This document shows positions 25,721 to 27,618 of a stretch of DNA of 64,000 nucleotides, piece after piece; the stretch's first letter is position 1, and each line of letters starts with the position of its first letter. The position numbers and the translations under genes were made by a program. The notes below the pieces were generated by a model. That model did not search any database and was not told the DNA's origin. It was given only the letters and a program-made list of their open reading frames with translations. Source of the DNA: Eledone cirrhosa (taxonomy: Eukaryota); NCBI GenBank assembly GCA_964016885.1, contig OZ024752.1, positions 24,552,001 to 24,616,000 of the forward strand, read 5' to 3'.

Positions 25721-26308
25721 TAAGTTGTAATAAAATGAAAACGAAATTTCATTTCTCACTCTTAGTACGGCACTTACTTAAATGTAAGTATGTATGTATA
25801 CGTACATACATATATGTATACAGACGTACAGTAGCATGTATATATATATATATACATATATGCATACAGGTACACATACATATATGTACGTATCAGTTTA
25901 GCGGACGCTTATTATAACCCCCGCTTTGTTCGTTTGTAAACAAACTGAACAGCCTGAATTTATGCCGTACGGTGTTAAGGCAACCACGTCACCTTTTTGT
26001 TCAACACTGCCACAGAAACGATGTACTAGTTTCAAGCTTGTTAGCTATCATCAGCACCGTATACCCTTCTGCCAGATGGTTGAACGTTCGAAAGTATATA
26101 CTTTCCTTATGAAAATTAACGGCTGAGCAGCCTAATTTGCATATCGAGTGAGTTCGGTCAGGCGTACCGAGAACGATAAGTTGTAATAAAATGAAAACTG
26201 ATACGTACATATATGTATGTGTACCTGTATGTATATATGTATATATATATATATACATGCTACTGTACGTCTGTATACATATATGTATGTACGTATACAT
26301 ACATACTT
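25721..26308 (-). mobile_element. Non-coding ~456-bp HHR retroelement (retrozyme-like) with 5' inversion
   Basis: 22-bp direct repeat at 25721 and 26177, HHR at 26018-26060, and 26198-26308 is an inverted copy of ~25786-25896. Confidence 0.72.
26018..26060 (-). ncRNA. Minimal type I hammerhead ribozyme
   Basis: ACGGTG-CTGATGA-TAGCTAACAAGCTT-GAAA-CTAG-TA-CATCGT. Confidence 0.85.
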
Positions 26309-26941
26309 ATGTTTATATATATATATCTTATATATATATATGTTTATATATATATATCTTATATAAATATATGTTTATATATATATATCTGATATATATA
26401 TATATATATCTGATATATATATCTGATATATATATATATATATATATTTATATATATATATCTGATATATATATATATATGTTTATATATATATATATAT
26501 ATATATATATATATATATATATATATATATATATATATTTGATATATATATATATATATATCTGATATATGTATATATATATATATGATATATATATATA
26601 TATCTGATATATGTATATATATATATATGATATATATATATATATCTGATATATATATATATATGTATCTGATATATATATATATATATATATATATATA
26701 TCAGATACATATATATATATATATATCAGATATATATATATATATCATATATATATATATACATATATCAGATATATATATATATATCATATATATATAT
26801 ATACATATATCAGATATATATATATATCAAATATATATATATATATATATATATATATATATATATATATATATATATATATATATATATATATATATAT
26901 ATATATATATATATATATATATATATATATTAAGTTAAAAA

Positions 26942-27618
26942 TGTTTACATACAGAATAGCTGGGTTGCTCACAGTAAAGCAACCAGTGAAAGACTTGTTA
27001 CATCTACATATTTATACGTGTGTGTATTCATATGCACACTAGTATTTCAGTATGCATATGTAGATGTACATTTTTAACTTAATTGTTTAAGCGTCAGTCA
27101 TACAAAAGTGAGTTACAAACGAAACGAAATTTAATTTCGTTTCGTTATTTGTTTTTATCGTCTCCGCTGAACCGGTGCGTACTCACACTCTATGCAAATT
27201 AGTCTGCCCACTACTAATTTTCATAGAAAAAGCATATAACGATATGTGCTTTTACAATTCTCCAGAAAGGCCGGTAGATAGGTAAATATTGCTGATGAGT
27301 TGTAACAACAACGAAACTAGTTCAATATTCCTTGTCTGGCTTTCTGGAGAATAGAGGGAAGGTGTTTCCTCGAAAACCAGTATGACTCTAAAAACCGGTT
27401 TGTCTGTGTGTTTACATACAGAATAGCTGGGTTGCTCACAGTAAAGCAACCAGTGAAAGACTTGTTACATATGTATACGTGTGTGTATTCATATGCACAC
27501 TAGTATTTCAGTATGCATATGTAGATGTACATTTTTAACTTAATTGTTTAAGCGTCAGTCATACAAAAGTGAGTTACAAACGAAACGAAATTTAATTTCG
27601 TTTCGTTATTTGTTTTTA
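26942..27618 (+). mobile_element. Non-coding ~465-bp HHR retroelement, ~1.45 units
   Basis: 26942-27158 is repeated at 27409-27618, with a central HHR. Homologous to the element at 25721. Confidence 0.75.
27285..27329 (+). ncRNA. Minimal type I hammerhead ribozyme
   Basis: AATATTG-CTGATGA-GTTGT/ACAAC-GAAA-CTAG-TT-CAATATT: canonical core with a 7-bp stem I. Confidence 0.9.

Follow-up and report, generated by a model that had tools for sequence, protein, structure and literature searches.

Two diverged copies of a ~460-base protein-free hammerhead element in TA microsatellites of Eledone cirrhosa, a likely non-LTR retrozyme borrowing PLE machinery

What kind of element carries a ribozyme, encodes no protein and is nevertheless copied beyond its own length is the question raised by two insertions, here called A and B, in a 64,000-nucleotide stretch of Eledone cirrhosa DNA (the window, as the whole analysed stretch is called below). 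The window, AT-rich and of animal type, consists of (TA)n arrays and of elements that have inserted into these. Metazoan non-LTR retrozymes have been described, together with a proposed copying from circles that is driven by Penelope-like elements (PLEs; Cervera & de la Pena 2020, PMC7229834), and in coral, mussel and axolotl retrozyme RNA occurs in circular form (PMC7229834). A circular template for more-than-unit copies was proposed in 2014 (PMC4209133), and a PLE origin of retrozymes has been put forward recently (Li, Clavereau & Pollet 2026, bioRxiv 10.64898/2026.07.22.740005). On the basis of the current results, A and B are very probably diverged copies of a protein-free hammerhead element of about 460 bases lying in TA microsatellites. 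This element is likely a non-LTR retrozyme dependent on the RT-endonuclease of a PLE, most likely one of the Hydra clade. The two insertions and their units are as follows.

25721..26309, minus strand: copy A, whole insertion (inverted arm, 22-nt overrun and one unit)
25721..26176, minus strand: A unit, 456 nt, ORF-less, 37.5% GC
26931..27618, plus strand: copy B, whole insertion (14-nt inverted arm, 216-nt overrun and one unit), 1.46 units
27158..27618, plus strand: B unit, 461 nt, ORF-less, 36.4% GC

An earlier note on this DNA had described two diverged homologues in opposite orientation, neither with an ORF, and both points were borne out. The insertions point away from each other (A on the minus strand, B on the plus strand), 283 of the 433 aligned letters of their units are identical (65%), and the local alignment score of 229 (shuffle mean 61) was reached in 0 of 300 dinucleotide shuffles. 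The portions 5′ and 3′ of the ribozyme gave the same outcome when each was scored alone (0/300), and the final 75–85 nt of the units, taken by themselves, showed weak homology (8/300 shuffles reached the score). The longest ATG ORF on the doubled unit measured 60 aa in A (antisense) and 19 aa in B, and blastx of the units against the 15 ORFs of the window gave no match. The ORF with RT and C-terminal GIY-YIG that characterizes an autonomous Hydra-clade PLE is absent from A and B. Both units are non-coding, a few hundred bases long and below 50% GC, as retrozymes are.

Each unit contains one hammerhead.

26018..26060, minus strand: type I hammerhead of A (core at 26054; stem II with U-U at its base; stem III palindromic; triplet GUA)
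27286..27328, plus strand: type I hammerhead of B (core at 27292; stem II with G-C at its base; stem III palindromic; triplet GUU)

The core, stems I–III and cleavage triplet of a type I hammerhead could be identified in both copies, at Rfam scores below the cut-off: HH9 gave 38.6 bits for B (E 1.4e-8) and 17.4 bits for A (E 0.09), both under the gathering score of 52. A relaxed hammerhead scan found 13 matches in the window; 60 block-shuffled windows averaged 0.017, and none of them contained a strict match. In both copies stem I has 6–7 bp and stem II has 4–5 bp with a common loop; stem I of B extends to about 27257–27353. The inner part of stem III is CTAG, and its six-letter palindrome closes poorly as a monomer. 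The GUU triplet of B is GUC in other copies of family B (186 of 527 reads). Cleavage is predicted after 26024 in A and after 27322 in B, that is, 303 and 296 nt before the respective 3′ ends. The hammerhead in mid-unit and its CTAG in stem III had been noticed before and stand; the label of a minimal hammerhead attached to them does not, a short palindromic helix III being a feature of canonical type I (PMC4209133). By the definitions of the same source, both ribozymes are of the canonical type I found in metazoans, for which cleavage in the dimeric form is expected. It should be noted that in the minimum-energy folds of A and B the ribozyme core is mispaired with stem III and not in the active form, and that the pairing probability of stem I in A is 0.05; self-cleavage, ligation and circles of A/B RNA are predictions. 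With one hammerhead each, A and B are solo (monomer-class) copies and not ‘active’ copies in the sense of Li et al. (2026), and since each has a single ribozyme, neither locus could release a monomer by double cleavage. For circle production, A and B themselves would be dead ends.

The ends of the insertions bear more directly on how they were made.

26177..26198, minus strand: A overrun, the final 22 nt of the preceding unit; the outermost 4 of these double as the microhomology at the inversion joint
26942..27157, plus strand: B overrun, the 3′-terminal 216 nt of the preceding unit; relative to 27409–27618 it shows a single 6-nt gap and a single mismatch
26195..26309, plus strand: A 5′ inverted arm, 115 nt, copy of 25785–25899 (114/115 identical)
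26931..26944, minus strand: B 5′ inverted arm, 14 nt, reverse complement of 27068–27081
25721..25784, minus strand: A ‘tail’ between two inferred RT start sites, with terminal hairpin 25734–25753
27543..27618, plus strand: B ‘tail’, with terminal hairpin 27584–27602
25104..25720: (TA)n-type target array, flanking A on its 3′ side
26310..26930: (TA)n-type array that separates the 5′ ends of the two copies; the orientation of its variant units flips at 26687/26688
27619..27903: (TA)n-type array, 3′ flank of B

Direct repeats confirmed the proposed 5′ overruns into the previous unit, of 22 nt in A (a perfect 23-nt repeat, 25720–25742 and 26176–26198) and about 216 nt in B (a 217/211-nt repeat, 26942–27158 and 27409–27619). 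The inverted arms, which the earlier note overlooked, meet the direct parts at microhomologies of 4 nt (A) and 3 nt (B). Their outer ends define a second site, located 64 nt (A) and 77 nt (B) before the main 3′ end, in a hairpin that is weakly common to the two copies (pairing probabilities 0.43 and 0.15); in B this second start site lies at 27081/27089 in the first half and at 27542/27550 in the second half. All four outer junctions of A and B abut (TA)n, and as both copies are inside (TA)n arrays, a target-site duplication, which in retrozymes exceeds 4 bp when there is one, is unreadable in them. The two copies had also been said to have the same 3′ end fused to (TA)n: the (TA)n joint holds for both, and the ends agree in position and fold, their sequence likeness being weak by the shuffle test given above for the final segments. 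L1-style twin priming on a single molecule might account for A but not for B, where the inverted arm copies sequence that is also in the direct arm; both copies can be explained by two cDNAs that were made independently from two start sites. A and B each show the partial tandem, 5′ inverted copy, one-ended tail and (TA)n site of a PLE-type insertion. All four features have been reported for Hydra PLEs (Craig et al. 2021, PMC8557442), nearly all Hydra-clade families insert in (TA)n (section 11 of PMC8557442), and in the anole Poseidon PLE the tail is bounded by two RT start sites (Frangieh et al. 2024, PMC11167929).

Public sequencing reads were mapped to positions 26942–27408 as reference, using 4 of 24 listed runs, all non-RNA; X1 and X24 are runs of the host, and X24 is a RAD library from another study. 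Family B was abundant in the host, with 1,038 contigs in X1, whose depth gives no copy number, and 3,449 of 12,467,656 reads in X24. The family is therefore multi-copy, and partial tandems in both copies and the reads show a head-to-tail organization, as in retrozymes. Together with the ribozymes and the lack of an ORF, this upholds the idea of a non-coding hammerhead family of retrozyme type. Contigs ending in (TA)n were found behind 27158 (six in X1, one in X6) and behind 27089 (five in X1); the family therefore has two termini, separated by about 70 nt. The opposite-strand joint 26942/27068 was seen in five raw X24 reads (two starts); thus, the inversion joint of B is not an assembly artefact. 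X24 depth at the unit junction (27150–27181) was about 1,270, compared with about 1,090 at 27086–27117, RAD depth being biased. With depth undiminished and the site identical in A and B, the unit junction is an intrinsic, common feature of the element. None of the 22 loose ends inspected, out of 132, was well-agreed foreign sequence common to many starts, and two well-agreed loose ends just past the junction in the host runs were variants of the unit itself. No record spanning the entire B unit was present among the mapped records, and neither these nor the window yielded an A- or B-family copy with two ribozymes.

At 13 of 14 listed family-variable sites the two halves of B agreed in allele, and five of the shared alleles are in the minority in both host runs (for example, 27037C, where 302 of 326 X24 reads show T); the halves differed by two events. 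The B halves thus likely came from one template or one homogeneous source. Under two other organism labels, pieces 93–100% identical were found at low depth, for which relatives, transfer and contamination are all possible. When the ribozyme layout common to A and B was used as a search pattern with 20 specified bases, 0 matches were obtained in viral_contigs and 0 in metagenome_contigs. Loose or read ends of X24 at 27081, 27131–27133, 27200 and 27216–27219 were rejected as biology, their agreement being mostly about 0.34. Those at 27081 and 27131–27133 fall at TTAA sites in the window and the others likely at variant ones; they fit what we take to be restriction-site chimeras of a reduced-representation library, the identity of the enzyme being our assumption.

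Further features concern the RNA that such a family would produce.

27380..27564, plus strand: B long-range helix P2, 7 bp (27380–27386 with 27558–27564), with two double changes relative to A
26108..26143, minus strand: A conserved hairpin near the unit start
27191..27225, plus strand: B conserved hairpin near the unit start

Compared with 40 shuffles, circular folds of the sense strand had z values of −6.0 (A) and −10.8 (B), and those of the antisense strand −4.0 (A) and −7.2 (B); as only circular folds were scored, fold stability does not favour the circle as such. Ten helices were matched by hand after the folds had been viewed, and all 57 of their pairs hold in A and B, 12 of them kept through changes on both sides (partners slid by 1–3 positions give 0–1), although choosing helices by hand after folding biases pair counts towards them. 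MAFFT with RNAalifold recovered only part of the hand-matched helices. The counterpart of helix P2 in A pairs 25970–25964 with 25771–25765. Long-range helices link the unit start to the unit end, and the ribozyme stems of A and B differ by double changes that preserve the pairing. Variation within the family agrees in direction: 5 of 40 listed variant sites break a predicted pair, whereas 10.7 were expected (P=0.004; 42 further sites lie outside the list). When ten A>G sites, which may stem from one hypermutated allele (possibly by ADAR), are left out, 5 of 30 break pairs compared with 10.9 expected (P=0.005). The stem II partners T27300A and A27311T occur at matching, unphased X24 frequencies (411 of 580 and 404 of 554 reads). 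These modelled folds indicate that selection acts on the RNA structure of the A/B family, the pair counts leaning towards the chosen helices. The conserved hairpins of both copies also contain, at unit position 35, what we take to be an octamer-like motif; it has 14 sites in the window and lies inside a conserved hairpin, so a role in an internal snRNA-type promoter, as in newt satellite 2, is no more than possible.

Such an element would need a protein supplied from elsewhere, for which the window offers candidates.

39119..45416, plus strand: candidate helper type, putative Hydra-clade PLE with an upstream partial copy of its own 3′ end
13549..15849, plus strand: further PLE ORF copy
23028..25004, minus strand: further PLE ORF copy
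52446..54102, plus strand: separate ORF-less hammerhead array, 485 bp × 3.42, in (TA)n, with three intact hammerheads

At least six ORF stretches in the window represent related EN+ PLEs with RW[KR], DKT, YRDD, CxCX5C and GIY-YIG-type motifs, and on these motifs they appear to belong to the Hydra clade. A protein search with one PLE ORF found 43 relatives; Pfam recognized none of the PLE ORFs, and among 13 ORFs only a LINE-type RT at 49105–50469 was matched. A fragment at 57163–58224 is presumably Neptune-like. Rfam miRNA matches across the window were discarded as simple-repeat artefacts. The PLE at 39119–45416 has its ORF (40111–42613) in two frames, with the break near 41246–41268, and a hammerhead at 45211, 73 nt before its end, which has no tail; among its other copies the end lies 134 nt beyond this point, giving two kinds of end. 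Thus, this ORF-bearing element likewise exceeds one unit and has two ends. Comparison of A and B with the PLE ORFs and ends in the 64-kb window revealed no similarity beyond AT-rich simple-repeat letters, so the proposal of a Hydra-clade partner draws on co-location, layout and target type.

The 485-bp array, which the earlier note also overlooked, has five variable sites, each private to one unit, and is, unlike A and B, an ‘active’ copy in the sense of Li et al. (2026). Its kinship with A/B is weak and was rejected: whole-unit scores were reached in 10 and 3 of 300 shuffles, and scores against the A/B end segments in 16, 532, 902 and 873 of 1,000 shuffles.

To place A and B, we compared them with known systems. 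With metazoan retrozymes they share a non-coding head-to-tail unit of a few hundred bases with GC below 50%, one type I hammerhead per unit whose helix III is short and palindromic, a fold predicted to be compact, the presence of PLEs alongside and a proposed PLE mobilization from circles, and the U-U at the base of stem II in A is also found in axolotl HHR_Amex2. They differ in being a new sequence family, at the long end of the 150–450 bp of the 2020 paper and inside the 51–972 bp of the 2026 preprint, and in being solo copies known here from genomic DNA alone. Moreover, in the accessible text of PMC7229834 and the main text of the 2026 preprint (supplements may differ), no retrozyme is described with the (TA)n targeting, the pair of RT start sites or the inverted 5′ arms seen here. 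EN+ Hydra-clade PLEs and anole Poseidon resemble A/B in the pseudo-LTR partial tandem, inverted 5′ copy, one-ended tail, hammerhead upstream of the termini and (TA)n targets, whereas A and B have no RT-GIY-YIG ORF, a unit of 460 bp and not kilobases, no match to the PLE ends of the window, a tail of 64–77 nt instead of 30–40 and a hammerhead about 300 nt before the end. The non-autonomous Chlamys PLEs (MRC1) are likewise ORF-less PLE derivatives with pseudo-LTRs and multicopy head-to-tail insertions (PMC8557442). However, they are green algal, belong to a group without canonical hammerheads, and have a 3′-end sequence in common with their autonomous partners, and no such sharing was found for A/B in the window. 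Newt satellite 2 and Schistosoma Sm-alpha, compared by description only, are tandem hammerhead units of about 300 bp that cleave as dimers and have internal promoters (PMC2220036, PMC6765202); the equal unit position of the motif in the A and B hairpins is a point of likeness to them. In the paper titles and abstract openings searched, a scope that leaves out most subscription papers and supplements, none was found in which tails and inverted arms connect a retrozyme of hammerhead type with PLEs of the Hydra clade.

The A/B layout works like a PLE insertion, and A and B show the retrozyme features that could be assessed, except the ‘active’ status of the 2026 preprint. We consider A/B a likely new family among the metazoan non-LTR retrozymes, probably mobilized by a PLE acting in trans. 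The word ‘new’, used from the start, fits the sequence family and not the phenomenon, more-than-unit copies being the normal PLE arrangement (PMC8557442), as in the PLE at 39119–45416.

A possible course of events would be the following. Head-to-tail source arrays elsewhere would be transcribed into multimers, in which pairs of hammerheads, dimerizing through the palindromic stem III, are predicted to cut out monomers of about 460 nt, and a host ligase would close these into compact circles. A PLE protein may then bind the conserved fold near the 3′ hairpins and nick both strands of a (TA)n tract, with cDNA primed at two fixed internal sites that lie about 300 and 230 nt on the 3′ side of the cleavage site. 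Synthesis from the outer site would pass the uncut ribozyme and exceed the full unit, the genomic result being observed as 1.05 and 1.46 units, whereas synthesis from the inner site would give the short inverted arm without the 64–77-nt tail, and the two cDNAs would join at the 3–4-nt microhomologies. The core of this scheme, reverse transcription from a fixed internal start on a template exceeding one unit, had been suggested earlier and is supported here. The nature of the template is a separate matter. Greater-than-unit copies had been taken as a signature of circular RNA, and this reading is not supported, since passing the cleavage site needs only uncleaved RNA, and in vitro a PLE can work from unprocessed RNA without cutting by its hammerhead (PMC11167929). 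We give the monomeric circle about an even chance. The full proposal, rolling-circle reverse transcription of a ribozyme-made circle of about 460 nt by a Hydra-clade PLE protein starting at the two mapped hairpin sites, is offered tentatively, as possible at clearly less than an even chance.

The same element and PLE helper may instead have used an uncleaved linear multimer, transcribed from a homogeneous tandem array, with a hammerhead that trims or is slow and with circles uninvolved in copying; we regard this as a serious possibility, a little short of even. The anole PLE uses unprocessed RNA in vitro, its hammerhead mutants insert normally and the model given is a multi-copy transcript (PMC11167929), and eight of nine Xenopus retrozyme dimers were without cleavage (bioRxiv 2026.07.22.740005). 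Homogeneous arrays do exist in this genome, such as the 485-bp array, and would equally explain the alleles shared by the B halves; neither 5′ end of A and B coincides with the cleavage site; and the two differences between the B halves, which may be later mutations, would not be created by a single circular lap. On the other hand, retrozymes of three animal groups accumulate as circles (PMC7229834), the ribozyme stems of A/B have been kept by double changes, and the unit is compact, with long-range helices, the z values being those of circular folds with linear ones uncompared. Moreover, A stops 22 nt past one lap, as if RT had met its own start on a circle, although this is one case.

That A and B are solo pseudo-LTRs, or 5′-truncated ends of ORF-bearing PLEs whose 3′ region is a tandem repeat with a hammerhead, appears improbable. 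Every end structure is of PLE type, solitary hammerheads from truncated PLEs are common (PMC4209133), a PLE of the window has a 360-bp tandem duplication in its 3′ region (4666–5393), and a junction to the ORF side may hide among the loose ends, of which 22 of 132 were inspected. However, the unit junction is identical in two copies diverged by 35% and as deep as the remaining unit in raw reads, no well-agreed foreign end emerged in the inspected subset, similarity to PLE ORFs or ends in the window is lacking, and the long-range helices tie the unit start to its end. Template routes other than a circle or a linear multimer seem slightly less probable still. Finally, an origin of the partial tandems by DNA-level events or repeat insertion (a monomer beside an older truncated copy, an RT template jump or unequal crossover) is very improbable: PLEs do tend to insert beside earlier copies (PMC6765202) and the B halves differ, but the junction is precise, without (TA)n remnants in A, B and reads, the five minority alleles common to the B halves would be rare for random partners, and duplication would not yield inverted arms that start at a fixed second site.

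The retrozyme class, its likely PLE origin and the idea of a circular template have all been published, and A/B is not a new kind of system. Its value is that of a clean test case for whether PLE machinery mobilizes retrozymes, and whether it does so from circles or from linear multimers (PMC7229834, PMC11167929 and the 2026 preprint). It combines PLE marks on an ORF-less ribozyme unit with two mapped likely RT start sites and a fold kept across 35% divergence, and it is abundant and lies beside a candidate helper. If rolling-circle copying by a Hydra-clade PLE protein is true, the tail, inverted arm, (TA)n target and single-template overruns would be the first physical footprint linking a hammerhead retrozyme to one PLE clade, the small conserved fold would be a minimal cis signal for PLE RT, and the circular-template hypothesis of 2014 would become directly testable.

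The window contains a dense cluster of ORFs from the Hydra clade of EN+ Penelope-like elements (PLEs), the candidate helper of A and B, two diverged copies of an ORF-less hammerhead unit of ~460 nt lying in (TA)n (25721-26309, minus strand, and 26931-27618, plus strand). These ORFs belong to about four families, and none in the window was recognized by Pfam. Their positions and those of other retroelements are as follows:

1081-3206, minus strand: Hydra-clade PLE ORF
5504-6496, minus strand: Hydra-clade PLE ORF
13549-15849, plus strand: Hydra-clade PLE ORF
23028-25004, minus strand: Hydra-clade PLE ORF
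40111-42613, plus strand: Hydra-clade PLE ORF
61535-63873, minus strand: Hydra-clade PLE ORF
47409-50472, plus strand: LINE-type element with RT and endonuclease-like ORFs; further fragments of it lie at 36517-37597
57163-58224, plus strand: fragment of another PLE type than those of this cluster, GIY-YIG-type motif

PLE-type ends near the Hydra-clade ORFs hold hammerheads with a palindromic stem III (6811, 45211 and 61120), two of which carry stem II inserts of 90-114 nt. A further hammerhead family is represented by three short fragments, each comprising a direct part with its tail (the stretch between two inferred RT start sites) plus an inverted arm lacking the tail; no parent element was found within the window:

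24930-25103: fragment
34377-34581: fragment
60640-60823: fragment

Both A and B have an octamer-like motif at unit position 35, within a conserved hairpin having an internal mismatch:

26135-26128, minus strand: motif in A
27192-27199, plus strand: motif in B

As in newt satellite 2, this motif could serve as a promoter element; alternatively, it could be an RNA motif that binds protein.

Words of B (26942-27618) occurred in public runs from 16 studies, under many organism labels. In X5 and X6, the two runs aligned from other organism labels, the pieces were 93-100% identical to B (reference 26942-27408), at a depth far below that of the host. Separately, about 112 reads (1-2 starts) of X24, a host RAD library, showed sense-strand A>G changes at 27375, 27376, 27382 and 27390-27394, possibly reflecting an RNA-edited copy fixed in DNA, a single mutated locus or a library artefact.

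Among the 11 (TA)n arrays counted (3285-59700), three short variant units lay on the plus strand nearly throughout, independently of the orientation of inserted elements; the exceptions, where they pointed the other way, were 26688-26930 and portions of both 3285-4260 and 46117-46827. The common orientation may reflect either templated addition or one extensive satellite tract with a fixed direction.

A second ORF-less hammerhead family, whose similarity to A and B was too weak to count as relationship, forms an array within (TA)n:

52446-54102, plus strand: 485-bp unit, 3.42 copies

It starts 9 nt upstream of a cleavage-site position, and its three ribozymes are all intact, with a long stem II. 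The units show five differences in total, every one private to a unit. Of the short-unit elements observed in the window, only this array could free a monomer between two ribozymes.
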